Shown here: positions 2,328 through 64,000 of the stretch, in pieces
Position numbering within the stretch: the first letter of the stretch is position 1
Layout of the letters: each line of letters opens with the position of its first letter
Program-made: the position numbers and the translations under genes
The notes under the pieces: generated by a model
What the model saw: the letters and a program-made list of their open reading frames with translations, nothing else
Told to the model about the DNA's origin: nothing
The model's database searches: none
Source of the DNA: a virus
Length of the DNA stretch: 64,000 nt
Reading direction: 5' to 3' (one strand)
IMG/VR virus record: IMGVR_UViG_3300045988_181536
Location: 110,314 to 174,313 of that record

Positions 2328-3886
2328 ACTCCCCAAAACCACAGCCAACTGAAACAAATGATGCAATTGCCGTTACAGAAAATCCGGCAATTAAAAGTTT
2401 GGTGCGTAGTAATACCAGAATGTTTGAGCAGTATTTAATGGCTGCAATGATTTTAAGTTATGATTTTTGGAGAGTTTACTGTAAGGACAGAATTAACGCT
2501 AGAATAAGCTCCCACAGATCATACGAAGATTTTAGTAAAAGCGTATATAACAATATTTATGACGGAATTTGCACGTTTTATAACACTTTATCCGACAAAA
2601 ACGACCCAAATAGTTCTTCAATTACCCAAGTCGATGTAAGCTTTGTTAATAGTCTTTTAAAAGACCAGATGTATCTGGGACAAATAAGTATTGAAGACAC
2701 GAAATTTGCCGAAGAAAGTTTAAATGAAATTGTCCAGTTAATTAACAATTCTGCCGGAAACAATGATGTTATTTTTAATTTTGCCAAATCCGGTTTTGCA
2801 TTTTGGCTGGAATTAAGACGAGTATCCCAGATAACTGAAAAGTCGTTTAATACAAAAATAACGGCTGATGAATTAATTAATAAACTTAAATCAGCTACAG
2901 ATGGATTAGATGTAGATGATTCTACGTTTATGTCGTTTAATGACGCCGTGGACTTTGAAGACGTAGATAATGGCGGTTATCGTATGCCCGTGGCTACATT
3001 GCCTATTTTTACAAGAGTATTAGCCGGAGGATTAAAGAAAGGCGAAACTGGCATTGTTGCGTCACTGCCTTCGGGAGGAAAAACAGTTTTTGCATGTCAG
3101 CTTGCCGTTGGGTTGGCCTTAAATGCTTTTAAGGTATTATTTATTTCAACTGAGCAACATGCTGTTAATCTCGTGCCGAGATGTGTTAGTCTTAGCACAA
3201 ATATACCTTTTAGTTTAATAAATGATGGCATTAAACATGCTGTTAAAAATAGCAAATTAAATGACCAACAAATAACCGAAATAAAGGAGTTTACACAGTT
3301 AGTGCAACCTTATCTTTATTTTGAAAATTGGGGATTAAAGGGTAATAAGATAACAAGCAGTTTAGAACATGCCATTGAAAAATTTATAGAAGTTAATGGC
3401 AGTTTGGATGTTGTTATTATTGACTGGATAGGCGGTGGCATTGAAAAACCTCCGGAAGATCGCGCCAAAAAGCACGAGTATTATGACTATACCATGAAAT
3501 ACATTTGCAAGGTTATGAAACAAAAACATCTTGCAGGAGTGGTTATGGCACAGGTTAATCCTAAACAAGCGGAAAATGTCGCAATGATTACCATTAACGA
3601 ACTGGCCGATTGTAAAACACTAGACCAAGATGCTTCTTGGGCATTGGGTATCTCGCGTTTAGAGAATCCTAAAACTCGTGTATCAAATCAAATCCAAGCT
3701 TCGTATAAAACGCAACAAACGTTTAACTTTTGGAAAAACCGATTGTCTCCGCCGTATCATTATCCCGTGCTTCGTGATTTTGCTTATCAAAGATTTGCGG
3801 AAAAAGAACAAGCAAGTCCTATGACAAATGTGGCGACCAAGGTTGAACTTGGCAGTATGGATACATTAAACATTAAGCCAATTTAA
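2318..3886 (+). CDS. DnaB-like replicative helicase
   Basis: C-terminal RecA-fold helicase motifs in DnaB order: Walker A ASLPSGGKTVFACQLAVGLA (H1), VLFISTEQ (H1a), VVIIDWIGGG (H3), AGVVMAQVNPK (H4). Confidence 0.6.
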   Translation: MDLNSPKPQPTETNDAIAVTENPAIKSLVRSNTRMFEQYLMAAMILSYDFWRVYCKDRINARISSHRSYEDFSKSVYNNIYDGICTFYNTLSDKNDPNSSSITQVDVSFVNSLLKDQMYLGQISIEDTKFAEESLNEIVQLINNSAGNNDVIFNFAKSGFAFWLELRRVSQITEKSFNTKITADELINKLKSATDGLDVDDSTFMSFNDAVDFEDVDNGGYRMPVATLPIFTRVLAGGLKKGETGIVASLPSGGKTVFACQLAVGLALNAFKVLFISTEQHAVNLVPRCVSLSTNIPFSLINDGIKHAVKNSKLNDQQITEIKEFTQLVQPYLYFENWGLKGNKITSSLEHAIEKFIEVNGSLDVVIIDWIGGGIEKPPEDRAKKHEYYDYTMKYICKVMKQKHLAGVVMAQVNPKQAENVAMITINELADCKTLDQDASWALGISRLENPKTRVSNQIQASYKTQQTFNFWKNRLSPPYHYPVLRDFAYQRFAEKEQASPMTNVATKVELGSMDTLNIKPI

Positions 3887-40105: not shown

Positions 40106-41473
40106 ATGGAGCAGCAAACAATCAAAAAGAGAGGGCGTCCCGCTGGCTATAGAAAGCAAGCAGACGGTACTTGGGTTAGGGTTATAACGACTGAACCCAA
40201 ACAGTCACAATCATCTAAACCAAAGCCCGTGCAGCCGGAACATGCGTCTACACCTAAAAAACGAGGTCGCCCCGCAGGTTATAGAAAAATGCCTGATGGT
40301 ACTTGGGTAAAGCAAGCACCTGAAATAATGCATACAAAAACGAATGTGTCTGTTAATAAACGTGGTAAAAAGTCTAAACTGAAAAATTCGGATGCAGACT
40401 TATTGATAGAATCAGATTTAGCTATATCCCCTACAGCTGCAGATTTAAAATCTTCAAAAGATCATGCCTCAAATGTTTTTTCGTTTGTCAATATTGTTGT
40501 AGATATAAGTTTAAAAGATAAAGGAATATCTGACGAAGGTTTCATTCATAATGATTCCGTATTTAAGCTATTTGCTCAGAAATATAATTCTGAAACTCCT
40601 ATAGAATTTTATTTAGATGATCCTTATAATAGTTTAACTGAAGAAGAGTATTCCAATTTTTATGATTGGTTAGAAATTGAAGGGTATTTTAAGCGAAATA
40701 ATGTAAGCATTACTTCTTCCGCAAATGGATCTTCAGCTAAAAGGTTGTTTACTTTAGTTTTAAAAGGGGGCATACCTTTCTTTATTTTATGTCCTGTAGT
40801 TTGTCATCAAGACGGTTCTTATAATATTAAAATTGGAGGCATTGTACAGAATCAGATAGCTAATTCAAAAGCCACATCCCTATCAGGAATTTGGGGGATA
40901 TTTCCCTCAAAACATTTAAAAACTTTATCTTCTGAATCTAAAGCTTTGATTTCGGATCTAAGGTTTACGCCTGTGGGTTTTTACGCTTCAACTCCTTCAT
41001 TTAATAATGATCAATTTGAAGTGTTTTTTGATGGATTGGTAGTTGAACTTGGTTCAAAGGCACACTCGAAAACTTTAGTAAGTTTGGAAATAGATGACAT
41101 GGTTCCTGCAAATGTTGAATCAACAGCAGTGCCACATACTGTTTCGACATTGCTTGCAGAGTCTCATGAATTTGAGGATTCAGATGAGCAAGAAAAGGTT
41201 TCCAACGAAGAATATGCTGATGATTACGATTTAGACGATTATAAGTTAAAAATATCGCATAAAAAAGTTAACGATTTCGTTTTAGAGGAAGACGGTGTTT
41301 ATAGGCGTCGTTTTAAGGATAGAGCCAGTAACTATGTTCCTGCAAACCATAATGATATTTATTATGATGATACGAACATAGAAAGAGACAACTATCAAGA
41401 AATCGGAGAAGGTCATTATAGAAGTGTTAATCATCAACTAAGTGATGATATAGATTTTGATTATTGGGATTAA
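40106..41473 (+). CDS. hypothetical protein with two AT-hook-like RGRP repeats at the N-terminus
   Basis: KKRGRPAGYRKQADGTWVRV and KKRGRPAGYRKMPDGTWVKQ form a tandem pair. Acidic C-terminal half. Confidence 0.4.
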   Translation: MEQQTIKKRGRPAGYRKQADGTWVRVITTEPKQSQSSKPKPVQPEHASTPKKRGRPAGYRKMPDGTWVKQAPEIMHTKTNVSVNKRGKKSKLKNSDADLLIESDLAISPTAADLKSSKDHASNVFSFVNIVVDISLKDKGISDEGFIHNDSVFKLFAQKYNSETPIEFYLDDPYNSLTEEEYSNFYDWLEIEGYFKRNNVSITSSANGSSAKRLFTLVLKGGIPFFILCPVVCHQDGSYNIKIGGIVQNQIANSKATSLSGIWGIFPSKHLKTLSSESKALISDLRFTPVGFYASTPSFNNDQFEVFFDGLVVELGSKAHSKTLVSLEIDDMVPANVESTAVPHTVSTLLAESHEFEDSDEQEKVSNEEYADDYDLDDYKLKISHKKVNDFVLEEDGVYRRRFKDRASNYVPANHNDIYYDDTNIERDNYQEIGEGHYRSVNHQLSDDIDFDYWD

Positions 41474-52791: not shown

Positions 52792-52990
52792 AGATCAAAT
52801 AATCCTTGACGATTTATTTTTCTTAGTGCAGTTTAAAAAGTGAAAAATATTTTATTTTTATACGAGATTTATAGGTTAATAAAATTTTAATATTTTAGTA
52901 TAACTTATTTATGACCGTATATTTATAAAATATTTTCACTTAAAATATTACATATAAGTAAATTAAGCATTAAAAAAACAGATTTTATAT

Positions 52991-53365
52991 ATGCCAAACG
53001 AAACATCAAATACACAAGATTCTGATATAAATGAAGTTACGGATTTTTCTCAAGAATTTTCCGAAGTTGAAGTCGTAAAAGATGATTCTAACGTTGAAGT
53101 AAGTGACAGTGAAATAAAAGAAATTAATGATGAGTTAAAAGAAGCGATTAGTGAAGATCAAGAAGTATTTGAAGAACTTGCTGATGAAGATAAAGAAGAG
53201 TTAAAAGACCCTGATGCTTCAGAGGAAGAATCATCTATTCCTGTAGAAAATAACAGTGATAGTGTAGTAATAAATAAACCTGTAAGTGCATATGATAACG
53301 AATCAAAGTTTCCTTATGCGATTCCTGATGCTACATTAAATACGTGTCCTGCCAAAGGTTATTAA
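52991..53365 (+). CDS. hyperacidic protein (about 40% D/E)
   Basis: 124 aa dominated by E/D/S (EVEVVKDDSNVEVSDSEIKEINDELKEAISEDQEVFEELADEDKEELKD). Preceded by a 190-bp AT-rich promoter-like region and followed by a strong terminator. Confidence 0.45.
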   Translation: MPNETSNTQDSDINEVTDFSQEFSEVEVVKDDSNVEVSDSEIKEINDELKEAISEDQEVFEELADEDKEELKDPDASEEESSIPVENNSDSVVINKPVSAYDNESKFPYAIPDATLNTCPAKGY

Positions 53366-53394
53366 ATAAAACTATATTTTTATATCTATATAAT

Positions 53395-53440
53395 AAACGC
53401 CCATTTAGGTTTATGCCTTTTTGGGCGTTTATTTATTTTA
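53395..53440 (+). terminator. rho-independent terminator
   Basis: Stem aaacgccca/tgggcgttt, loop tttaggtttatgccttt, then atttatttta. Confidence 0.6.
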
Positions 53441-53554
53441 TAAGCGAAAAAATAAACTAAATTGAGGTATATATTATTAAGAAAGAATATTTATCTACAG
53501 CTAGACATTTCGCATATTCTGTGCGAAATGGGAAATTTAGATGTAGATAAATAA

Positions 53555-54076
53555 ATGATTACTATGGAAAAAGTTGTATATGGAAATCCCACAATTGAAG
53601 GCAAAGTGATGGACAACGTAAGCGTCAACCACGACGCTTACGTTGGACCTAACGCAGTCGTCAAGGGAAATGCGTACGTGCGTGATGGTGCACGCATAGA
53701 GGGCAATGCCGTCGTGGATGGCAACGCCGAAATCCACGATGCCGCTACAATAAAGGGAAATGCCGTCGTTGATGGCAACGCCCGCGTGGGTGGGAATTTC
53801 ATCGTGGGCGGCCACGCCCACGTAGGAGGGGAAGCCTCTCTAAGTGGGGAAGGTTCCGTAGGCGGTTTCGCCGACATCAACTCTGACGACGACTACGTCG
53901 TTATACATGGGCTGACCCCCCACCCGTTGACGGTGTACAAATCCTCCGTGTGGGGGTTTGAGGTTTCCATCCAGGGGCAGTGGGAGACATCGATTGAGAA
54001 TTTCCTGGAACTCGAAAGATTTCCAGGAAATGTAAAGAAAATTATCGAGCTCATAGCTCAAAAATGGAAAAAATAA
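53555..54076 (+). CDS. repeat protein with GNAxVxDGxA-type deca/icosapeptide repeats (beta-helix-like), GC-rich gene
   Basis: VKGNAYVRDGARIEGNAVVDGNAEIHDAATIKGNAVVDGNARVGGNFIVGGHAHVGGEASLSGEGSVGG. Tandem repeats of about 30 nt are visible at the DNA level. GC content is far above the flanks. Confidence 0.45.
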   Translation: MITMEKVVYGNPTIEGKVMDNVSVNHDAYVGPNAVVKGNAYVRDGARIEGNAVVDGNAEIHDAATIKGNAVVDGNARVGGNFIVGGHAHVGGEASLSGEGSVGGFADINSDDDYVVIHGLTPHPLTVYKSSVWGFEVSIQGQWETSIENFLELERFPGNVKKIIELIAQKWKK

Positions 54077-54090
54077 AATAGCCCCACAAT

Positions 54091-54130
54091 ACACAACCGG
54101 TGGAAATCCACCGGTTGTGTATTTTTTTTT
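54091..54130 (+). terminator. rho-independent terminator
   Basis: Perfect 13-bp stem acacaaccggtgg/ccaccggttgtgt, loop aaat, then a run of 9 T. Confidence 0.7.
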
Positions 54131-54201
54131 AGCTATAACACCTTGCTCACCTAAAAAATAAATCCTTGAATTTAACTCTTAAATAAGCGAATATACAATA
54201 C

Positions 54202-57200
54202 ATGTCATCTTCGAATATAAACGACTTAAGCGCATCAAATAATCCTAAAGAAATTATGGCTAAAAAAAATAAGCTTATTCCGGTATTAAAACGCGGAGTA
54301 ATAACAGAAGAACCGGATGATATTGAAAAGGTTAGATATGAGTTCGTGTCTCCAAATCAATTCTTTGGCAATACATTAAATTTATTACCAATGCAAAATT
54401 CCGTTACTGCTGCAAGGGCGTTTTATGAGCATAAGTTTATTACTCAAGCCTTGCCTATTAAAGACGGCGAATCCCCTAATGTGCAATCTTTAAAAAATGC
54501 GGATAATAACGAGTCATATGAGGATTATTTAGGCAAAAAAACCGGTGTTATTTCATTGGATGACGACGATAATTCTGCTGATATTTTGGAAGTGACGCCG
54601 GATTATATTAAATATAAAAACGATAAAGGCGAAACTAAGACTAAGAATTTATATAACAATTTTGCCTTTAATCGTAAAACCATGCTTACTAATTATCCTT
54701 TGGTAAAAGCGGGTGACAAAATAAGCAGGGATAAATCCAAAAATCCGCCTATTTTGGCTAAAACCAACTTTACTGATAATAACGGCACTTTAAATATGGG
54801 CCTAAATGCCAGAGTGGGATTTGTGCCGTATAAGGGATGGTCCATGGATGATGCCGTGGTGATATCGGAAGATTTTGCTAAAAAGATGACTTCGCAACAT
54901 ATGTATCAATATAGCGAAGCTAATGACAGCAAGGATATAAAAACAGGCAAAGACCATTTTAAAGCTTTTTATCCGGATAAGTTTAACAAGGAACAGATGG
55001 ATAAAATAGACGATAATGGCGTTATTAAAGCAGGCACTGTGGTGAATCCCGGTGATCCATTAATCGTATCCACACGTTCCAGGGTTGTGTCCTCTAATGA
55101 TGCTAATTTAGGTAGATTATCCAAGTATTTAAAAACAACGCGATTGGACTCATCCCAAGTATGGGATCATAATACTCCGGGTGTCGTAACTGATGTTGTC
55201 AAAACAAATGACGGATATAAGGTTAACGTTGAGACTTTTGCGCCTATGCAAGAGGGGGATAAGATGTGCTATCACCCCGATACTGAAGTATTCACGGAAG
55301 ACGGATGGAAGAATATAACTGAGGTTAAATTGGGCGACAAAGTTGTTGCTTTAACCACAGATTTATCAGGAAAACCGAGCGGATATAAGCTTTCAGATGT
55401 AATAGAAATACATAAATATAAATTAAATAATGATACTTTATATGGTTATGAAGATGAGCATGTTGCTCAGTTAGTTACTGGAAATCATAATTGCGCTATT
55501 AATTGTTTAGACAAGTTGACCTATGAAACTGCAAATCTTTTATCTTATTCCTCAAAAGATGAACAGTTTATTTCTGTAAGTCCTGATTTTGATTTAAATA
55601 ATGGGAATGATTTAAAGTATACGTTTATAAATAAAAACAATGTATATAAAGCATATGATTATTCCGGAGAGGTAATAGGCATAGGAGTTAACGCTTTTTC
55701 GCATATTATTTTAACGAGATATCATAATAAACCTATATTCTCGGGCAACTCAAGTCGCTCCGGTAATAAGTTAACTGTATCCCATATTTTACCGCAAAAT
55801 GAAATGCCGAGAACAAAAGACGGCAAACCGTTAGATGTATTATTTAATCAGTTGGGTTTGGTGTCTCGAGTTAATGCCAATATGATGTATGAAGCTATGC
55901 TTGGGAAGGTTGCCGAGAAAACGGGTAAAAAATATAAATTGCCGACCTTTAATAAAAATAGCGAAAAATGGTATGATTTTGTCGAAAACGAATTAAAGAA
56001 AAATAACTTGTCTGATGTCGAACCCGTTTATGATCCAGTAATTGATAGAGACTTAGACCAACCTATTGCTGTAGGCAATGCTTATTTTCTTAAACTGCAT
56101 CATACGTCTGACTCCAAACTTTCCTCAAGGGGTCAGGGCATTTATGACCAAAATGAAATGCCTGTAAAGGGCGGGGAAGAAGGCATGAAAAGTAAAAGAC
56201 ACAGCAACTTGGAGAGTAATGCGATTTTATCTTCCGGTGCATATAACGTAATTAAAGACGCAATACATTTAAGGGGACAACGCAATGATGATTATTGGCG
56301 TAAGGTTCGTATGGGGCAGACGCCATCATTAGCCAAAAAATCGCCTTTTATCTGGGATAAGTATATTGCTTTAATGCAAGGCGCAGGAATAAATGCAAAA
56401 CGCGCTGATAATGGCGATTCGATTCAAGCCACACCTTTTACAGATAAGGACTTTGCATTATTTAACCCTGTTGAAATAAAAAATGACGGCATTATAGACT
56501 TTAAAAATATGAAACCTATTTCCGGCGGATTATTTGATCCTGCTTTAACTGTCGGCAACAGATGGGGAAAAATTACATTAGATAGGCCTTATCCTAATCC
56601 TGCATTTGAAGATACGATAATATCTTTATTAGGACTTAAAAGGTCTACGTTTAATGATATATTAGCCGGAAAAGAATCATTGCTTAAATACGGCACCGGA
56701 ACCAAGGCTATATATAATGCATTGTCGGATATAGACATAGACAAAGATTTAGAACAGGCAAAACAAGATTTTAAATATGGACCAAAATCTAAAAAGCAAC
56801 AGGCACTAAATCGTATAATGGCTTTAGACGGATTAAAAAATAACCGTATGAAGCCTGAAGAATTTATGATTACGAAGGTGCCTGTTATACCACCTAAATT
56901 CAGGCCTTATTCTGTTATGGGTAAAGATACTTTCTTGCCTGGGGATGCAAACGAGCTATATCAAGATGTAATTAACATGGCGCATACCCAGGGCGAGATA
57001 TTGCAAGAATTAGGCCCCGATGAAGCAGATAAAAATGTGCCTAATGTTTATAAATCTTTAAAAGCTTTGTATGGTTACGGAGAGCCTGCAAGTCGCAAAT
57101 TAAAGCAAAGAGGAGTATCAGGATTTTTACAAAAACTTATCGGGGGAACTTCTAAGTTTTCGCAATGGAATAGGAATATCATAAGCAAGCCCGTGGATTT

Positions 57201-57582
57201 TTCTGCGAGAGGCGTAATCGATGCAAATCCCGAGATTTCTATGGATGAGCTTGGTATTCCTTATGAAATGGGTTTTGAGATTTATTCGCCATATATTCAG
57301 CGAGAGCTTGTAAAAAGAGGCCTTTCACCAAAAGATGCGTTACAGAATATTAAAGACCAGACAAAAATGGCAAAAGATGCGTTGCAGACTGTGGTGGATG
57401 GAGGCAGATGGATTACTGCAAGTAGGGCACCGGCGTGGCATAAGTTCAATGTACTTGGCTTTAAACCTGTGTTTCATGAGGGCAAGAATATATTGCTTCC
57501 GCCTGTGGTGAGCTCTGGATTAGGGGCTGATTTTGACGGCGACTGCCAATGGGGGCACGTGTTCCTGTTAACTAAGTCTTGA
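54202..57582 (+). CDS. RNA polymerase beta C-terminal portion fused to beta' N-terminal portion (through the DFDGD active site), containing a mini-intein
   Basis: LNARVGFVPYKGWSMDDAVVISEDF aligns to beta [25 protein letters not shown]. GDKM | intein | SSRSGNKLTVSHILP..DVLFNQLGLVSR aligns to beta GDKMAGRHGNKGVISKINP..DIVLNPLGVPSR. Beta' motifs follow: PPKFRP, DFSARG, RAPAWHKF, and the catalytic GADFDGD 13 residues before the stop. Confidence 0.8.
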   Translation: MSSSNINDLSASNNPKEIMAKKNKLIPVLKRGVITEEPDDIEKVRYEFVSPNQFFGNTLNLLPMQNSVTAARAFYEHKFITQALPIKDGESPNVQSLKNADNNESYEDYLGKKTGVISLDDDDNSADILEVTPDYIKYKNDKGETKTKNLYNNFAFNRKTMLTNYPLVKAGDKISRDKSKNPPILAKTNFTDNNGTLNMGLNARVGFVPYKGWSMDDAVVISEDFAKKMTSQHMYQYSEANDSKDIKTGKDHFKAFYPDKFNKEQMDKIDDNGVIKAGTVVNPGDPLIVSTRSRVVSSNDANLGRLSKYLKTTRLDSSQVWDHNTPGVVTDVVKTNDGYKVNVETFAPMQEGDKMCYHPDTEVFTEDGWKNITEVKLGDKVVALTTDLSGKPSGYKLSDVIEIHKYKLNNDTLYGYEDEHVAQLVTGNHNCAINCLDKLTYETANLLSYSSKDEQFISVSPDFDLNNGNDLKYTFINKNNVYKAYDYSGEVIGIGVNAFSHIILTRYHNKPIFSGNSSRSGNKLTVSHILPQNEMPRTKDGKPLDVLFNQLGLVSRVNANMMYEAMLGKVAEKTGKKYKLPTFNKNSEKWYDFVENELKKNNLSDVEPVYDPVIDRDLDQPIAVGNAYFLKLHHTSDSKLSSRGQGIYDQNEMPVKGGEEGMKSKRHSNLESNAILSSGAYNVIKDAIHLRGQRNDDYWRKVRMGQTPSLAKKSPFIWDKYIALMQGAGINAKRADNGDSIQATPFTDKDFALFNPVEIKNDGIIDFKNMKPISGGLFDPALTVGNRWGKITLDRPYPNPAFEDTIISLLGLKRSTFNDILAGKESLLKYGTGTKAIYNALSDIDIDKDLEQAKQDFKYGPKSKKQQALNRIMALDGLKNNRMKPEEFMITKVPVIPPKFRPYSVMGKDTFLPGDANELYQDVINMAHTQGEILQELGPDEADKNVPNVYKSLKALYGYGEPASRKLKQRGVSGFLQKLIGGTSKFSQWNRNIISKPVDFSARGVIDANPEISMDELGIPYEMGFEIYSPYIQRELVKRGLSPKDALQNIKDQTKMAKDALQTVVDGGRWITASRAPAWHKFNVLGFKPVFHEGKNILLPPVVSSGLGADFDGDCQWGHVFLLTKS
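55267..55749 (+). other. mini-intein (161 aa) in the conserved beta GDKxxxRHGNKG motif
   Basis: Starts CYHPDTEV after GDKM. Block B is LVTGNHNCAI. Ends ..KPIFSGN followed by SSRSGNK. The terminal pair is Gly-Asn. Confidence 0.6.
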
Positions 57583-57613
57583 CAAAGTTTTCCATATTCT
57601 AATGATGTAGGGT

Positions 57614-59050
57614 ATGGAAAATAAATTATCAGACTTAATTTCTTTAAAACACAGCAAAGAATTTAATAACAAGAAACAAAAGTTTATAGATTTCTTAAAT
57701 ACCAATCTGGAAGTTCTACAGTTAAGAGAAAAATATAACTTAACTGTAGAAGATTTAAATTGGCATCTTACGAGAAAATTAGATTTCTATAAACACGAGT
57801 GTCCTGTATGTGGAAAACCTGTGCATGCTAACAAATGGGGTTGTTGGGATTTTCCCACCTATTGCTCAGTTAAGTGTAGAATGTCTGATCCGAAATATTG
57901 GGATAAAATTAAAGAAAGTAACGTAAAAAAATATGGTACGCCTTATTCGTTTCAGTCTGAAATAATTAAGTCGAAAATTAAACAGACGAATCTTCAACGT
58001 TATGGCGTAGAAAATCCAGCTATACTTGATTCTATTAAAGAAAAAGCTAAGGCTACTTGTCTGGATAAGTACGGAGTAGTTTCTACAGCGTTAGTGCCTG
58101 AAATTAGAGAGCTACAGAAAAAATCCCTAATACAGAATTATGTTTTAAATTGTAATATAACTAATGATGTTTTAAATTTAAAAAAAGAAATCTTAAGTTT
58201 TGTTAAAACAATATATTCTGGAGAAATATGTTTTGAAGATAAATCTATTGTTATAGATTCTTTGAATAAAAGAAAAAATCTTGAATTAGACATTTATTTG
58301 CCAGAAAGAAAACTGGCTTTTGAAATTAATGGTTCTTATCAATGTAGTTTGATGGATAAAAAACCAAGTTATAATACATATAAAACTAAGTTGTGTGAGG
58401 AAAAGGGTATACATTTAGTGCATATTATGGAATATACATGGGTTAATAATCCTGAAGGAGTGAAATCCAGAATTAAAGACTTATTGGGTATTTATGATCA
58501 AACAATATACGCCAGAAAATGTGAGGTTAGAAAAATAGAGTATAACAAAGCAAAAGAATTTTTAATTATGAATCATTTGCAAGGAGAAGTAGTTTCTTCG
58601 CGTAACTATGGTCTATTTTATAATGATGACATTGTAGGTGTAATGACTTTTGGTTCTCCAAGGTTTAATAAGAAATATTCTTGGGAATTACTAAGATTTT
58701 GTGTTAAACAAGGTCTGCATATTCCTGGAGCAGCATCAAAATTATTGTCATTTTTTGTAAAAGAAGTTAAACCTGATAACTTAATAAGTTATGCAGATAG
58801 GACTTGGAGTAATGGTAAGCTATATAGAGCATTAGGATTTAAATTAGAAGGTGAAACTAAACCAGGATATGTTTATGTAAAAAATAACAATCAAGAAGTT
58901 TTATGTTGGTATAAAAGTCAAAAACACAATCTAAAGAATTTATTGGGAGACCAATTTGATTCAACATTATCTGCATCAAAAAATATGATTAAGGCACACT
59001 ATTGGAAAGTTTATGACTGCGGAAATTTAATTTTTTCTAAAACATTTTAA
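57614..59050 (+). CDS. Zn-finger / KYG-repeat protein with a C-terminal GNAT-like domain (possible homing-endonuclease-associated protein)
   Basis: N-terminal CPVCGKPVH..CSVKCR. Three tandem repeats of about 35 aa (KKYGTPYSFQSEIIKSKIKQT / QRYGVENPAILDSIKEKAKAT / DKYGVVSTALVPEIRELQKKS). The C-terminal Q-G-x-x-x-G-A-A segment resembles GNAT motif A. It sits exactly where the beta' gene is interrupted. Confidence 0.3.
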   Translation: MENKLSDLISLKHSKEFNNKKQKFIDFLNTNLEVLQLREKYNLTVEDLNWHLTRKLDFYKHECPVCGKPVHANKWGCWDFPTYCSVKCRMSDPKYWDKIKESNVKKYGTPYSFQSEIIKSKIKQTNLQRYGVENPAILDSIKEKAKATCLDKYGVVSTALVPEIRELQKKSLIQNYVLNCNITNDVLNLKKEILSFVKTIYSGEICFEDKSIVIDSLNKRKNLELDIYLPERKLAFEINGSYQCSLMDKKPSYNTYKTKLCEEKGIHLVHIMEYTWVNNPEGVKSRIKDLLGIYDQTIYARKCEVRKIEYNKAKEFLIMNHLQGEVVSSRNYGLFYNDDIVGVMTFGSPRFNKKYSWELLRFCVKQGLHIPGAASKLLSFFVKEVKPDNLISYADRTWSNGKLYRALGFKLEGETKPGYVYVKNNNQEVLCWYKSQKHNLKNLLGDQFDSTLSASKNMIKAHYWKVYDCGNLIFSKTF

Positions 59051-59081
59051 TCTTAACTTATAACTTTATTTTTAAATATTT

Positions 59082-59690
59082 ATGGAAACATCACAAATTA
59101 AATGGGGATTTCTTCGAGAAACTGAAGCTAAAGCAAAACAACTGGGATTGGATGCCGATACAGGTCTACATAGAACAGGCTTAGATACCTATCTATCAGC
59201 AATCTATCCTGAAGTTACTGATTGGATTCACGATAAATGTGTAAAAGGACTTTTAGTTGATGGAAAGCAAAGTCTTTTTCGTCCTGATTATAGAAGTGAA
59301 ACCTTAAAAATGATTGTTGAATTTGACGGTATACAGCATTATCAAAATCCCGAAAAGATTTTAGCGGACAAATTTAAAACAGATCTTTTTACGAAAGCCG
59401 GTTATAAGGTAATTAGAATACCATATTTTATACAGTTAACCAATAAGGTCATTAAAACATTATTTAATGTGGAAATAGAAACACCTATGTTTGATGAGTC
59501 TATTCCTTCAATAGGTGTTAAAGGCAAATGCACTCCTGCATTTTTGTGCCCGACAGGTGTAATAAGGATGGCAAAAGAGTTTCATAATATATCTCCGGAA
59601 CAATATATTATAAACGTTAATGCTGTCAGATCTTATCCAGACGAGCTTACAGGACTAAGTTTACTTGAAGCTTACTATAAAAGTTTATAA
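59082..59690 (+). CDS. DUF559 / Vsr-like PD-(D/E)xK family endonuclease
   Basis: RPDYRSE..IVEFDGIQHY....D..K..LFTKAGYKVIRIPY matches the DUF559 pattern (RPDF...IE.DG..H......D..R...L...G..V.R). Confidence 0.5.
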   Translation: METSQIKWGFLRETEAKAKQLGLDADTGLHRTGLDTYLSAIYPEVTDWIHDKCVKGLLVDGKQSLFRPDYRSETLKMIVEFDGIQHYQNPEKILADKFKTDLFTKAGYKVIRIPYFIQLTNKVIKTLFNVEIETPMFDESIPSIGVKGKCTPAFLCPTGVIRMAKEFHNISPEQYIINVNAVRSYPDELTGLSLLEAYYKSL

Positions 59691-59694
59691 TTAA

Positions 59695-60306
59695 ATGGAA
59701 ACTCTAACCAAACAAAACATGACAATAAAAGAAAAACTGGATTTATTAATCAAAGCCAACACAGCCTATAGAATAGGCAATCCTATTATCACAGACCAAG
59801 AATATGATTTAATCATCAGCGAAATAAAAGATACAAAAGAGTATAATGAAATAAAGTACTTCCTCAATGAAGGCGCAGACGGATCGGATTTTAAACATTC
59901 CTACGTGATAGGATCATTGGAAAAGCTTAAAAATGGTGAAGATGATACAATAAAGTCTTTTGATAAAAATAACTTAACAAAAAATTGGATAATTACACCC
60001 AAACTTGATGGGGCATCTTTGACGTTGTATTACATAAACGGTCAGTTGGCAGATATTGCTACGCGAGGGGATGGTTATAAGGGTAAATCGCAATTTAAAC
60101 GCTTGTTTGATTTAAATATTCCCAAGACTTTAAAATTTGCAAAAGGTACAGTTGTTATAAGAGGAGAAATACTTTTAACTCATCAGGCATTTGATAGACT
60201 TAATGCCGATACTAATGGCAAATATAAAAAGCATCCGAGAAATGCTGTCGTAGGACTTTTGGGAGATAAAAATGACACTTCTGACATTCTCCAAGCACTA
60301 AAGTAG
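59695..60306 (+). pseudogene. truncated NAD-dependent DNA ligase (LigA) fragment; first about 200 aa of the adenylation domain only
   Basis: TPKLDGASLTLYYINGQLADIATRGDGYKGK carries the LigA KxDG adenylation lysine and the TRGDG motif. HPRNAVVGLLGDKND aligns to LigA NPRNAAAGSLRQLDP. The ORF then stops 9 nt inside the convergent tnpB. No continuation is found within the window. Confidence 0.6.
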
Positions 60307-60341
60307 TTGGGTTCTCCTAACCTCGCGGTTTAGGTTTTCTG
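60281..60341. repeat. left arm of a perfect 61-bp inverted repeat
   Basis: ctgacattctccaagcactaaagtagttgggttctcctaacctcgcggtttaggttttctg. Its exact reverse complement occurs at 63940-64000. It spans the ligA stop and the last 14 codons of tnpB. Confidence 0.95.
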
Positions 60342-61497
60342 TTTCATCGGCGACTGCATTGGATGCTTCTGCATCTTTTAGTCTTACACCGCCTCCGCAG
60401 ACAAACACGACTTGCCCAGCCGCTAAAATATTTTTAGCTGCGTTTATATCTCTATCTAATACACTTCCACAGACTTGACATGTCCAAGACCTTTCGGAAA
60501 GCTTTAAGTCTTGTTTGATATAACCGCAGTGATTACAAGTTTTAGAGGAAGGAAAAAATCGATCAATGATTTTTAGATCTCTTCCATACCACTTGCATTT
60601 GTATTCCAACATATTGCGCAGCATACTCCAAGAAGAATTGGAGATAGCGTGTGCTAAATTATGATTTTTAAGCATATTTTTTACTGCAAGATCTTCCATA
60701 ACTATCGTTTGGTTTTCACGAATTAGTTTGGTTGTAATCTTATGCAAGGTATCTATACGCTTATTCGAAATTGTTTGATAGCATTTGGCCACCTTGACGT
60801 TTGCTTTGGTCCTATTCTTAGAACCTAACTTTTTGCAAGAAGCCTTACGTTGCAATCTTCGTAATTTATTAAAATCTTTTTTAGTATCCGGATTTTTGAA
60901 TACTTCCGCATTTGAAGTTGTTATTAAATTGTGCAACCCCAAATCCAGACCTACGGATTTATTTGAAACGGGAAGTTTGCAATCTTCATTACTATCTACA
61001 GTAATTGAAAAATACCATTCTTGAGAAGGGGTTAATCTAATCGTTAAGGATATTAATTTATCTGTAGACTTAATCCTCCAATTATCCTTAGATAATTTTA
61101 AAGGTTGCTTGGATTTAGCAATATAAACTTGGTTATTTTTGATTCTAAATCCTGAAGTAGTAAATCTTGCTGAACTTCCTGAAGATTTCTTTTTAAACTT
61201 AGGGTATTTGGCACGTTTGGCAAAAAAGTTATCAAACGCTGCGCCTAAATTTTTTATAGATTGTTGTAAACAAACATTAGATACTTCATTTAACCATGAG
61301 TATTCAGGCTGACGTTTCCATTTTGTCAGCTCTTTCATTAAATCAAAAGAGCTTAATGATTTGCCTGTTTGCGTAAATGTCGAAGACTTAAGATCAAGAC
61401 TTTTATTATAGATAAACCTAACGCATCCCAAGGTTCTACGTAGAAGAATCTCTTGGTCTTTCGTAGGATAAAATCTATGCTTTATAGTCTTTATCAT
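60298..61497 (-). CDS. tnpB: TnpB (RuvC-like RNA-guided nuclease)
   Basis: 399 aa. C-terminal CNHCGYIKQDLKLSERSWTCQVCGSVLDRDINAAKNILAAG zinc finger. Its sequence differs from the 42843..43958 TnpB. Confidence 0.8.
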   Translation of the reverse strand: MIKTIKHRFYPTKDQEILLRRTLGCVRFIYNKSLDLKSSTFTQTGKSLSSFDLMKELTKWKRQPEYSWLNEVSNVCLQQSIKNLGAAFDNFFAKRAKYPKFKKKSSGSSARFTTSGFRIKNNQVYIAKSKQPLKLSKDNWRIKSTDKLISLTIRLTPSQEWYFSITVDSNEDCKLPVSNKSVGLDLGLHNLITTSNAEVFKNPDTKKDFNKLRRLQRKASCKKLGSKNRTKANVKVAKCYQTISNKRIDTLHKITTKLIRENQTIVMEDLAVKNMLKNHNLAHAISNSSWSMLRNMLEYKCKWYGRDLKIIDRFFPSSKTCNHCGYIKQDLKLSERSWTCQVCGSVLDRDINAAKNILAAGQVVFVCGGGVRLKDAEASNAVADETENLNREVRRTQLL

Positions 61498-61685
61498 TTT
61501 TAATTGAACTTATTTAACTAAATAGATTCAGATAATGCAAGAAAAATTGTATGGTGCGCGTTAAAAAAGCTTGATAAATTAAAAATTTTATTGGATATTA
61601 TATCCAACATACCCGCCAGGCCTCTTAACAATGCCCAAATGTGGAGGGTTTAAATGAAGCCAATGGACTGGGGAATCTCGGTCGG

Positions 61686-61730
61686 TGAAAGATCTCGGAG
61701 TATTTCGGGGTCTTTCATTTTTTTTTTTTT
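61686..61730 (+). terminator. rho-independent terminator on the + strand within the IS 5'-side non-coding region
   Basis: Stem gaaagatctcgg..ggggtctttc, then a run of 13 T. No + strand ORF lies upstream, which suggests a small RNA ending here. Confidence 0.5.
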
Positions 61731-62050
61731 ACATATTTTTTATTTGTATTGACTAAAAGCTTAAGATGCTAAACACTTAATTATTATGTCACATTCTGTA
61801 GTTTTAGACCGCATTAAAGATTCCCCAGCTGTAAAATGGTTGGACAGTGCGGCAAATAATGCAGTTAAATGGCCTGGTTATGGTTTGGGGTTTTAAATAA
61901 GATATTTAATATTGAGGCACCCAAGCATAAGGATAAACATTTTAAGGATTTCATGGATAAAGTTAATCAATATTTTGATGGGAAGTCTAAAATACCTGTG
62001 AGAGTTTCCAAAAATGATTTTGTAACTACTAACTTAGCATAGGAGAAAAT

Positions 62051-62458
62051 ATGACAACAAATACTTATGGTAAAATAATAAAACAAGCCGGACTTGGCAG
62101 GGCTCTGTCATGGCTTGTTTCCAAAGGCATAAATAAGGTTATCAAATCTAAACCGATTGCAAACCGGATGGATAAAGACTGGAATGCTTATGTAAAACAT
62201 AGGGAAAAACTTGAAAATAGATTTCCTAAAGAAACCATTAGGAATGCTGATGGTTCTACTACTACGAGATTGACTCCTGAGGGTGAAAAAGCTTTTAAGA
62301 GAGAATATTTTAATGAAACTATGAAGAGAGATGGTAAAAATGTGCTTGATTTAACTCCTGAACTCACAAAAGCTAGGCTAACAAAATCTATAGACTTTAA
62401 GGATCCTGTTGCAACCACTGAGTTAGTCAGATATATAAGGCAATTAAGAAACCTATAG
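62051..62458 (+). CDS. hypothetical basic protein
   Basis: 135-aa ORF with an RBS aggag 8 nt upstream. Confidence 0.3.
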   Translation: MTTNTYGKIIKQAGLGRALSWLVSKGINKVIKSKPIANRMDKDWNAYVKHREKLENRFPKETIRNADGSTTTRLTPEGEKAFKREYFNETMKRDGKNVLDLTPELTKARLTKSIDFKDPVATTELVRYIRQLRNL

Positions 62459-62565
62459 TACCCGACAATAGGAAAATAATTGATTTTGATGCTGGATATA
62501 AAAATATATTGAAATAATTAAACTAATTATTTGTGAAATAACAGTTAAGAGAACTGTGGAACGAA

Positions 62566-62853
62566 ATGGATCCTGGATTAAAGCTGGGATTATTAGTTTC
62601 CCTACCTGCTACAGCTTTTGATGCTATGTTCACAACTCCGAGGGTTAACATAGTTGATAGAGCAATACGAAATGCTTTAATTGGAGGCACCGTGGGCTAC
62701 GGGGCTAGTAAATTAAAAAGTTATTTGGATAAAAAGCATTTAGCTAAGGAAGTAGAGAAAACTTACGGGGATAATATTATAGGAACCGGAGTAAAATCCA
62801 TTGTTAATAAAATGTATGACAATGGCATGAAATCTAAATTTCGATGGGAATAA
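62566..62853 (+). CDS. hypothetical protein
   Basis: 95-aa ORF. Confidence 0.3.
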   Translation: MDPGLKLGLLVSLPATAFDAMFTTPRVNIVDRAIRNALIGGTVGYGASKLKSYLDKKHLAKEVEKTYGDNIIGTGVKSIVNKMYDNGMKSKFRWE

Positions 62854-62871
62854 ATTTATTCACTTAAGTTT

Positions 62872-62910
62872 AAAACCAAGGAATCATTAGATCCTTGGTT
62901 TTATTTTTGA
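62872..62910 (+). terminator. rho-independent terminator
   Basis: Stem aaaaccaagga/tccttggtttt, then atttttg. Confidence 0.5.
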
Positions 62911-62946
62911 CATATGATTTTGTTTTTGCATTATTAAAACCTAATA

Positions 62947-63915
62947 ATGCAACCAATTAAAAATCCAGAGCTTTTAAATTTACCAGATATTCCGGAGGGT
63001 TATTCAGTATTTTTGGCCGATTTGTCTGAAATACCTCATGGTAAATTGACCAATGTAAATCCGGAGGGTAAAAACGGTCCTATTTATTTTTATGATACAC
63101 AGGATTTAAAAACATTGGCTTTTAATGAAGATAAAGGATGTTGGGACTGGGCTGATGTAAGTTGTTTTTCAATACATCCAAAACGACGATTAGTTATTGT
63201 TACATTATCTAACGGTTTGCAGATTTTTACGGACGATGACCCAAGGGCAATTTACGGATTAAATAAAAATACCGGAAAATACGAAAGACATACACCCGAA
63301 GAAGCTAAAGAATTGAATATAAATATTCCCGTATGTTCAGTGCTTGCAGAACATAAATATAGCAAAGATGAATTTATATTTCCTTTATTTTTTGATGATT
63401 TTAATGAAATAAGGGATGTGCAAAAGGAATTTTATCGAGTAGGAATTATCACATTAGTTTCTTATGATAAAGAACTAAAACAATTTGTTTTAGAAACTGA
63501 CGATAACTATGATTTTGCTGAATGGATTAATAAACCAGGTTTAGAGTTTGCGACTATTGACTTAATTGAAGATACGGGAGTTTATCTGGACGGTTATGAC
63601 CTTACAGTTCCGGGGTATGAAACCTTTATTAATTATAGTGGCGTTGTACTTTCGAATACGATGAATGTGCATGTGCCTGCGCTTCCTGAAGCTCAAGCTG
63701 AAATAAAAGAAAAGTTGCTGCCGTCAAAACAGATTTTTTCTCCCAGGGATTATAGGGTCGTAAATAAGCTAAAGCAGGATTATATCTTAGGTCCCAATTC
63801 TCAGATTACGGCGCCTGCAGAAAATAAATGGATATTAAATAGCGCCAAGGAATTAATGGAAGGATTAAATTCCGGCAAAATTAAATTGTCGGATGAGGTA
63901 GTGATACTACCTTAA
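62947..63915 (+). CDS. RNA polymerase beta' fragment (region just after the active site) with a novel N-terminal extension of about 220 aa and a degenerate DFDGD motif
   Basis: LIEDTGVYL..YSGVVLSNTMNVHVPALPEAQAEIKEKLLPSKQIFSPRDYRVVNKLKQDYILG..AKELMEGLNSGKIKL aligns to beta' [77 protein letters not shown]. The Asp triad is replaced by VxLxN. The ORF stops right at the inverted repeat. Confidence 0.45.
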   Translation: MQPIKNPELLNLPDIPEGYSVFLADLSEIPHGKLTNVNPEGKNGPIYFYDTQDLKTLAFNEDKGCWDWADVSCFSIHPKRRLVIVTLSNGLQIFTDDDPRAIYGLNKNTGKYERHTPEEAKELNINIPVCSVLAEHKYSKDEFIFPLFFDDFNEIRDVQKEFYRVGIITLVSYDKELKQFVLETDDNYDFAEWINKPGLEFATIDLIEDTGVYLDGYDLTVPGYETFINYSGVVLSNTMNVHVPALPEAQAEIKEKLLPSKQIFSPRDYRVVNKLKQDYILGPNSQITAPAENKWILNSAKELMEGLNSGKIKLSDEVVILP

Positions 63916-63939
63916 GTATTATAAACTTGCAGGATTAAG

Positions 63940-64000
63940 CAGAAAACCTAAACCGCGAGGTTAGGAGAACCCAACTACTTTAGTGCTTGGAGAATGTCAG
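63940..64000. repeat. right arm of the 61-bp inverted repeat; reaches the window edge
   Basis: Exact reverse complement of 60281-60341. On the + strand it re-encodes the TnpB C-terminus ENLNREVRRTQLL and its stop, so it is a solo copy of the tnpB 3' end plus adjacent flank. It may extend beyond the window. Confidence 0.95.

Follow-up and report, generated by a model that had tools for sequence, protein, structure and literature searches.

A perfect 61-bp inverted repeat in a human-gut phage probably records two opposite insertions of a tnpB-only IS200/IS605 element and their later gene conversion

The stretch of viral DNA analyzed here (64,000 nucleotides in full, positions 110,314 to 174,313 of IMG/VR virus record IMGVR_UViG_3300045988_181536, hereafter ‘the window’) carries, close to its right edge, an intact tnpB gene of the IS200/IS605 family of insertion sequences (IS). 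Elements of that family have no terminal inverted repeats, yet this tnpB lies in a 3.6-kb segment bounded by two arms of 61 bp, at positions 60281–60341 and 63940–64000, that are exact reverse complements of each other. How an IS of this kind came to appear bounded by a perfect repeat is the question raised by the locus. The initial annotation of the window had reported the arms and had suggested a second ω-RNA/guide copy, a DNA-inversion substrate, or the footprint of a second, inverted IS copy. Our analysis indicates that the repeat is, in all likelihood, the by-product of two independent and opposite insertions of one tnpB-only IS, both now defective, that were subsequently homogenized by gene conversion.

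Both the identity and the extent of the arms could be established. A repeat search recovered them and stretched the pair to 68 nt at 97% identity (60281–60348 and 63933–64000). A 36-nt core is present in only two copies in the window and in none of 100 shuffled sequences, even with three mismatches allowed, and a 19-nt core is likewise confined to the two arms and never occurs in shuffled sequence. Although the right arm touches the edge of the window, that edge is internal to a longer contig: contig L089 (ENA assembly ERZ501519, NODE_1; 174,201 bp) is 100% identical to window positions 52947–64000 and runs 10 kb further. Beyond 64000 it reads TTTAAAAAAGTTTAAG... (TTTAAAAAAGTTTAAGAG...), followed by a gene of 120 amino acids, and the outer flank of the left arm reads AAGTGTCATT..., unlike the DNA past 64000. 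From that position on the flanks differ, which makes the repeat 61 nt long and puts its end exactly on the window edge; neither a second ligA 3′ end nor a second tnpB, for which the initial annotation had proposed to look there, lies in the DNA beyond. That the window edge falls on the end of the repeat is a coincidence.

An origin of the repeat in assembly or amplification, for example as a chimeric contig or a fold-back, had been allowed for from the start, given that the repeat touches the window edge and that inverted chimeras are a known class of artefact. The same right junction was found, however, in at least nine assemblies of different samples made with different assemblers (SPAdes, MEGAHIT and Logan): Logan SRR7989896 (a strain 99.4% identical), ERZ28628063, ERZ913224, ERR13325631, ERZ916196, ERZ1309867, ERR11566674, SRR17319341/43 and ERZ28618837, all of them human-gut metagenomes where the records state an origin. 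This recurrence excludes an assembly artefact for practical purposes, and together with the 10 kb of contig beyond the edge it leaves that explanation with a vanishingly small probability. Two specific forms of it were considered and dropped: a fold-back chimera from multiple displacement amplification, because of the many samples that share the junction, and a contig end at the repeat, because the window edge lies inside a 174-kb contig.

The left arm is part of the IS itself. The tnpB gene (60298–61497, minus strand; 399 amino acids, intact) encodes a protein that matches the Pfam families HTH_OrfB_IS605, OrfB_IS605 and Cas12f1-like_TNB (PF12323, PF01385 and PF07282), all over their cut-offs, as well as structures of ISDra2 TnpB (8bf8, 8exa and 8h1j; E = 8e-63). 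Three full copies of the IS (L009, L010 and L011) were found at other sites in related phage contigs of IMG/VR sample 3300045988; their TnpB proteins are 97% identical in amino acid sequence to that of the window copy, and the elements about 97% identical in nucleotide sequence. When the right ends (RE) were aligned (alignment A1), the four independent copies were alike up to ...GGAGAATGTCAG and their flanks diverged after it, which places the RE terminus at 60281 in the left arm and at 64000 in the right arm. The left arm (60281–60341, minus strand) corresponds to the terminal 61 nt of the RE and holds its hairpins (CCTAAACCGCGAGGTTAGG at 60316–60334, and CCAACTAC/GTGCTTGG at 60291–60310), the tnpB stop codon (60298–60300), and the stop codon of a ligA fragment (60304–60306). 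It extends 17 nt past the tnpB stop, as had been described; those 17 nt, previously read as flank and guide, are IS sequence, and a guide would start at 60280. The arm is thus composed of the tnpB 3′ end and the IS right end, in agreement with the earlier view that the repeat does not represent IS terminal inverted repeats.

At the left end (LE), the three full copies show TGAC followed by a hairpin, CCCACGCTTTAAAGCGTGGG, that is unrelated to the RE and is absent from the window copy (alignment A2). The family trait of subterminal hairpins without terminal inverted repeats is therefore present, and so is a transposon-adjacent motif (TAM): in L009–L011 the LE is preceded by TGAC, and empty alleles read TGAC followed directly by the flank, with no target-site duplication. 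We conclude that the element is a phage-borne member of the tnpB-only IS200/IS605 group (IS1341-type), which displays the defining features that could be tested but for which a motif scan found no tnpA. A megablast search of 59600–64000 against GenBank phages gave no match, and exact-pattern scans of IMG/VR, JGI metagenomes and GTDB genomes returned neither a bacterial copy with the RE core nor a source contig with the right junction.

The window copy, which we refer to as copy 1 (60281–61548, minus strand, with a truncated left end), interrupts a gene for an NAD-dependent DNA ligase. The truncated ligase open reading frame (ORF; 59695–60306, plus strand; 203 amino acids; Pfam DNA_ligase_aden) is derived from ligA only up to 60280, its last eight codons and stop coming from the IS right end, and relatives carry full-length ligA of 628–636 amino acids with OB and BRCT domains. 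In the intact gene of the relatives, ...AAAAATGACACTT is followed directly by GTCATATTG, which on the IS strand reads TGAC and then AAGTGTCATT; the IS was therefore inserted exactly 3′ of TGAC, without duplication. Copy 1 lacks the LE hairpin and about 47 TAM-proximal nucleotides. In their place, a 12-nt microhomology (GCAAGAAAAATT, 61537–61548) joins the IS 5′ region, which reads ATAATGCAAGAAAAATT followed by TTTC in L009, to the ligA 3′ end, which reads CAGCAAGAAAAATT followed by GTATG in L002 and L003. The next 16 nt (61549–61564, plus strand) are the last of the original ligA and include its stop codon (compare ...AAAAATTGTATGGTAAGCGTTAA in L003). The 12 nt occur in the IS as well as at the ligA end, so a single deletion across this microhomology removed the LE tip together with about 1.7 kb of ligA; relatives have 1.3–1.75 kb where the window has the IS. 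Copy 1 is no longer excisable after this deletion and ligA is a pseudogene, with tnpB and its RNA region intact.

The right arm (63940–64000, plus strand) is what a second, oppositely oriented IS copy has left: the final 61 nt of its RE, with the terminus at 64000. The side on which the body of that IS should lie is the left, where an ORF for a fragment of RNA polymerase β′ sits instead, and the DNA past 64000 is unrelated. The β′-fragment ORF (62947–63915, plus strand; 322 amino acids) corresponds over its last ~85 residues to the part of β′ that follows NADFDGD, and its residues 236–312 match the same region of β′/Rpo1N/Rpb1 in 13 structures with weak E-values (from 0.013). It parts from its closest relative, L002, at 63912. 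The right arm does not follow the stop codon of this ORF (63913–63915) immediately, as first annotated, but begins 24 nt past it, and a 28-nt filler (63912–63939, plus strand) lies between ORF and relic. The last seven nucleotides of the filler, GATTAAG, match GATGAAA of the IS at five of seven positions, a likeness that may, judging from the letters, reflect imperfect microhomology at a deletion junction. In L002 the corresponding site is empty (...GCTAAC followed by TTTAAAAAGTTTAAGAG, or TAAC followed by TTTAAAAAG) and is located inside the 3′ end of a 423-amino-acid ORF. About 1.7 kb, comprising ORFs of 117 and 423 amino acids, separates the β′-fragment gene from the site in that relative, versus 28 + 61 nt in the window. 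The arm therefore has a genuine RE/flank junction at a TAM-like site, with the missing IS body to its left, and is the remnant of a second, opposite insertion whose LE and tnpB were deleted along with neighboring genes. The footprint proposed in the initial annotation was thus of the correct class, but the expectation that it continues beyond the window did not hold, as it ends at 64000 in L089.

The perfect identity of the two arms is explained by a series of sister strains. L187 and L188 have an intact ligA (628 and 636 amino acids) without the IS and nevertheless carry the relic, which therefore arose independently of copy 1 and is probably the older of the two. The arms can be typed at three sites (left/right positions 60325/63956, 60311/63970 and 60295/63986). 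The relic is C,C,C in L187 and L188, where the left arm is absent. All the other strains have the IS in ligA: in L184 (the same as L090) and L183 the left arm is T,T,G and the right arm C,C,C; in the window, L185 and L186 both arms are C,C,C; and in L189 both are T,T,G. L089 and L090 differ by only four substitutions over 4.9 kb, three of which are within an arm and match the other arm. The arms originally differed at three of 61 positions (~5%), the same divergence as is found among other copies of this IS. With TTG/CCC, CCC/CCC and TTG/TTG combinations distributed among sister strains, we conclude that the perfect identity was produced by gene conversion, in which the relic overwrote the RE of the live copy in the window lineage and the reverse took place in L189. 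At the third site, the change from G to C disrupts an 8-bp hairpin (CCAACTAC/GTGGTTGG; L010 holds a compensatory variant), so that the live copy of the window has taken over a probable defect from the relic. Some other IS copy was considered as the donor in the conversion of the L090 arm and dropped, since the strains that carry the relic alone and the restriction of the changes to 61 nt favor transfer from arm to arm.

The history that we propose for the locus would then run as follows. Copy 2 would have inserted facing the opposite way near the 3′ end of the 423-amino-acid gene, downstream of the β′-fragment gene, and a deletion would have taken that gene, its neighbor, and all of the IS except the last 61–68 nt of the RE. 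Copy 1 would have inserted 3′ of TGAC inside ligA of this ~174-kb human-gut phage and would later have lost the LE hairpin and ~1.7 kb of ligA across the 12-nt microhomology, keeping tnpB and its ω-RNA region. Conversion of the RE of the live copy by the relic would finally have created the perfect 61-bp identity of the window lineage. The sequences themselves show where the element ends, its empty sites, both deletions, and the direction in which conversion ran in the strain series. Both insertions would have relied on TnpA supplied in trans, and the relic presumably has no function of its own.

The contribution of the arms to an ω-RNA was examined by comparison. The predicted ω-RNA scaffold of copy 1 (60281–60402, minus strand) comprises at least 122 nt, from GTCTGCGG to the RE terminus, and its 3′ 61 nt are shared with the right arm. 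An alignment of 21 homologous tnpB 3′ regions (A3), which takes in phage and cyanobacterial homologs with only 44–51% amino acid identity, displays strong nucleotide conservation and a common fold that ends at ...ATGTCAA/G. The covariation score, based on pair counts for a structure drawn from the window sequence, is 0.307 versus a shuffle mean of 0.145 (0 of 500 shuffles as high), and slid partners score at most 0.129. An invariant long-range helix has its 5′ strand, in GTCTGCGG, approximately 75 nt upstream of the arm. When the RE region was folded as a single sequence, the result was no better than for shuffles (z = −0.17 and −0.38) and hence uninformative, leaving the comparative alignment as the only source of structural information; no family in Rfam matches this RNA. 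The left copy thus carries a conserved structured RNA that extends over the 3′ end of tnpB and terminates where the RE does, like an ω-RNA. The relic, with 61 of the at least 122 nt, retains both terminal hairpins and, of the long-range helix, only the 3′ strand; helices 1 (5′ strand), 2 and 3 are absent.

The guide predicted for copy 1 (60265–60280, minus strand; AAGTGTCATTTTTATC) is ligA sequence abutting the RE. Relatives read TGAC followed by AAGTGTCATTTTTATC, and this target is unchanged in the intact ligA of L002, L003, L006 and L008. In a configuration of this type, TnpB cleaves the empty allele and thereby biases inheritance toward the insertion (Meers et al., PMC10055086). The live copy of the window is in that configuration and would be expected to act against uninterrupted ligA.

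In L187 and L188 (~3205–3215, corresponding to window 60270–60280), the IS-free ligA target reads TGAC followed by AACTATCATT, versus AAGTGTCATT elsewhere. It thus differs from the predicted guide of the window by two TAM-proximal changes, which may represent escape variation or chance. L183 (Logan ERR11566674, 3660–3760; window 60041–60280) has the same LE-truncated IS with 240 nt of RE-adjacent ligA gone. Its RE terminus now borders CGTTTATGTAATAC, a sequence that immediately follows another TGAC (CTGAC) in intact ligA. This state arose either by recombination between the truncated copy and a second insertion or by an RE-to-TAM adjacent deletion, and the predicted guide differs from that of the window in both scenarios. 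L189 (ERZ28618837, 1048/1049; window 61335–61800) displays further decay of the same IS copy, in the form of a 467-nt deletion that takes the tnpB 5′ end, the LE junction, the ligA tail, and an abiF RNA motif described below.

Three other accounts of the repeat have to be weighed against the two insertions and their conversion. The right arm could have been copied recently from the ligA IS, by local transposition or duplication followed by deletion, in which case its identity would be by descent. Such an origin would fit the 100% identity of the arms in the window and the GTGC variant that both contain and that is absent from the full-length copies L009–L011. It is difficult to reconcile with the relic in L187 and L188, which have no ligA IS, and with the three differences in 61 nt between the same two elements in L184 and L183. 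The GTGC variant, moreover, is also found in an unrelated mini-cassette of another phage (L193), and the ligA copy without its LE could not have transposed after its deletion. We consider descent highly improbable. The arm could instead be a second, independent ω-RNA/guide unit that is used by TnpB in trans, as had been suggested. It is in the sense orientation with the flanking plus-strand genes, so that read-through transcription would cover it; it ends at a true RE/flank junction, like a guide-bearing ω-RNA; and the relative L193 contains a tnpB-less cassette with a full 151-nt ω-RNA region and a promoter-like 5′ piece. The arm, however, comprises only 61 nt (at most 68) of the scaffold, is without the 5′ strand of the invariant long-range helix and two covarying helices, and has a C–C mismatch in hairpin 2 (GTGC for GTGG). 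A promoter and terminator scan around it (L089 10800–11262) returned no promoter-like site, and nothing in or beside the arm. With half a scaffold and no adjacent promoter-like site, a stand-alone guide RNA is unsupported, and we regard it as extremely unlikely.

The remaining account, in which the arms form a working DNA-inversion switch, would have the 3.6-kb segment flip and join the complete tnpB/ω-RNA to a second guide (TTTAAAAAAGTTTAAG...). It predicts the junctions ligA-arm-CTTAATCCTGCAAG and tnpB-arm-TTTAAAAAAG (GACACTT + arm + CTTAATCCTGC, and GATGAAA + arm + TTTAAAAAAG). The arms end exactly at the scaffold/guide boundary, so that a guide swap would be clean, and they demonstrably recombine, with gene conversion in both directions; to that extent the inversion substrate of the initial annotation has substance. 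A single orientation was nevertheless found in all seven assemblies that cover both arms, a count that leaves out raw reads and 12 collapsed similar contigs. Contigs L095, L097 and L098, from window-type samples, end in or beside an arm, as inversion would allow, but such breaks are equally expected from identical arms that act, we infer, as a repeat in the assembly graph, or from coexisting L183-type strains. Logan contigs L093, L099 and L100, from a sample with identical arms, stop ~30 nt into an arm, and Logan contig L090, in which the arms differ at three sites, reads through both; the breaks fit a collapse of repeat k-mers if Logan uses k = 31, which we take to be the case. Look-ups with small flanks for inverted isomers returned fewer places rather than more and were uninformative. 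Neither a serine nor a tyrosine recombinase domain, nor any invertase gene, was found among the ORFs between and beside the arms, which are tnpB, three ORFs of 57, 135 and 95 amino acids with no credible domain match, and the β′ fragment. The relic is present in IS-free strains, so the pair did not co-evolve. No target of TGAC plus TTTAAAAAAGTTTAAG exists in the window or its relatives, the sole relative with the site having TAAC and an indel, and a flip would set the β′-fragment gene against the direction of its neighbors. We therefore rate a working switch as very unlikely. A broader variant, in which the immobilized TnpB/ω-RNA is kept as a homing or competition nuclease against siblings with intact ligA and a rare crossover between the arms flips the segment and switches the guide, also has a very small chance of being correct; if true, it would amount to a primitive guide-switching device made from IS debris, with the same TnpB re-armed with a different guide.

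Several points, in addition to the contigs and reads left out of the orientation count, weigh against the reading of two opposite insertions homogenized by conversion. No source of the 28-nt filler was found by exact-pattern scans of IMG/VR, JGI metagenomes and GTDB genomes. The empty site for copy 2 has TAAC rather than TGAC and one A fewer, and it comes from a relative (L002) that is 95% identical and is not a direct ancestor. A motif scan of six-frame ORFs from the window and the fetched related loci identified no Y1 HUH tnpA. Finally, no close copy of the IS was found in 185,579 bacterial species genomes (GTDB), where the best match has 50% amino acid identity; the TnpB relatives there, at 50% identity or less, are mostly cyanobacterial and provide no clue to the host.

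The element resembles the tnpB-only IS200/IS605 elements ISDra2 and ISGst (PMC10055086) in having a TnpB with HTH, RuvC and zinc ribbon, subterminal hairpins without terminal inverted repeats, and insertion 3′ of a short TAM (TGAC) without target duplication. As in those elements, the 3′ end of tnpB lies within a structured RNA that halts at the RE terminus, with the flank a ready guide against the empty allele. It is unlike them in residing in a large gut phage (its closest counterpart among the bacterial genomes being the one at 50% identity), in having no tnpA that we could see, and, for the window copy, in having no LE, so that it cannot be excised. The right arm is similar to the solo or partial ends left by ordinary IS decay, as a terminal fragment of which one side is a true IS/flank junction and the other an illegitimate one, but differs from them in that it exchanged sequence with a live copy in both directions, as documented by a natural strain series. 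Two inverted homologous stretches 3.6 kb apart swap sequence here as inverted IS copies do, although the homology is only 61 bp and conversion was observed but never inversion.

A further comparison is with non-autonomous miniatures of the IS200/IS605 family. Palindrome-associated transposable elements (PATEs) keep both the LE and the RE hairpins and can be mobilized. The right arm is, like them, a short and gene-less derivative of an IS605-type element, and the relative L193 has a related cassette consisting only of the ω-RNA region. The window relic differs from PATEs in being half of an RE region with no LE: it has RE hairpins only, and the 28 nt to its left have no similarity to the LE.

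IS relics and gene conversion are both known phenomena, and the repeat is a case of ordinary transposon decay; an IS of a family without terminal repeats only seemed to be bounded by a perfect one. Of the earlier interpretation, the assignment to an IS-end footprint that is distinct from terminal repeats survives, while its continuation past the window, the flank/guide reading and the second ω-RNA do not. The locus is of value because natural strains document its insertion, decay and conversion with unusual completeness. It provides a natural example of TnpB-type elements colonizing and eroding inside large gut phages, and of an insertion that leaves behind a nuclease with a guide perfectly matching the uninterrupted ligA of four sibling phage contigs. 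It also indicates that inverted homologies as short as 61 bp are homogenized by gene conversion in phage populations. At a practical level, the repeat breaks contigs from samples with identical arms (L093, L095 and L097–L100), and those who assemble these phages should expect contig ends there.

Other copies of the IS were encountered in the course of the analysis. In L193 (IMG/VR contig 180451, 4378–4584), a tnpB-less cassette occupies a site that is empty in the window (30619/30620; TTGAC followed by TGTGGTTATAC). In this cassette, 57 nt from the IS 5′ region, with a promoter-like TTGCAT box, are directly joined to the last 151 nt of the element, which contain the whole ω-RNA scaffold, and the RE and a new flank follow; a deletion of ~47 nt between repeats of TTGA removed the LE hairpin. 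A full tnpB copy (L010/L192) is located on the same contig, so that one TnpB is accompanied by two ω-RNAs with different guides. The window is likewise empty at the site of the L010/L192 insertion (41455–41470), where it reads TTGAT followed by TATTGGG; the occupied allele has TTGAC before the IS and TCTTGGG after it, and the TAM of the window at that site therefore has a C-to-T change.

Just beyond the ligA tail lies an abiF RNA motif (Rfam RF03085; 61612–61649, plus strand), with a score of 46.1 bits (E = 2.8e-6; gathering threshold, 37). The motif, which is inside a conserved block (61587–61734), is followed by a hairpin and a T-run and is kept in all related phages except for its deletion in L189. 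No gene for an AbiF/Abi_2 protein was found near the motif. RNAs with this motif neutralize AbiF toxins (PMC12373285), and the one in the window may act as a phage-borne antitoxin decoy against AbiF abortive infection.

The β′ fragment beside the relic has a counterpart upstream. A fused β/β′ ORF (54202–57582) ends in ...GADFDGD followed by CQWGHVFLLTKS and a stop codon (57540–57582), and the 322-amino-acid ORF reads ...TVPGYETFINYSGVVLSN followed by TMNVHVPALPEAQ around 63580–63660. These sequences suggest a naturally split intein, made up of a very short N-part and a C-part of ~235 amino acids, that cuts β′ right after the catalytic NADFDGD. The two halves of β′ are 5.4 kb apart in the window and roughly 1 kb apart in L004 and L005 (from the spacing of blast-matched blocks). 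Between them, window positions 57614–59690 hold variable selfish cargo: a 478-amino-acid ORF with DUF7487 and Mom domains and a 202-amino-acid DUF559 ORF (Vsr-like endonuclease fold) in the window, a LAGLIDADG homing endonuclease in L187 and L188, and neither in L004 and L005. A second intein-like insertion is located in the β part of the fused ORF, at ~55280–55740 (CYHPDTEVFTEDGW...). Two separate parts of that ORF match the Pfam family Rpb2_6, as expected if a segment had been inserted, and L002 and L003 differ from the window in this interval.

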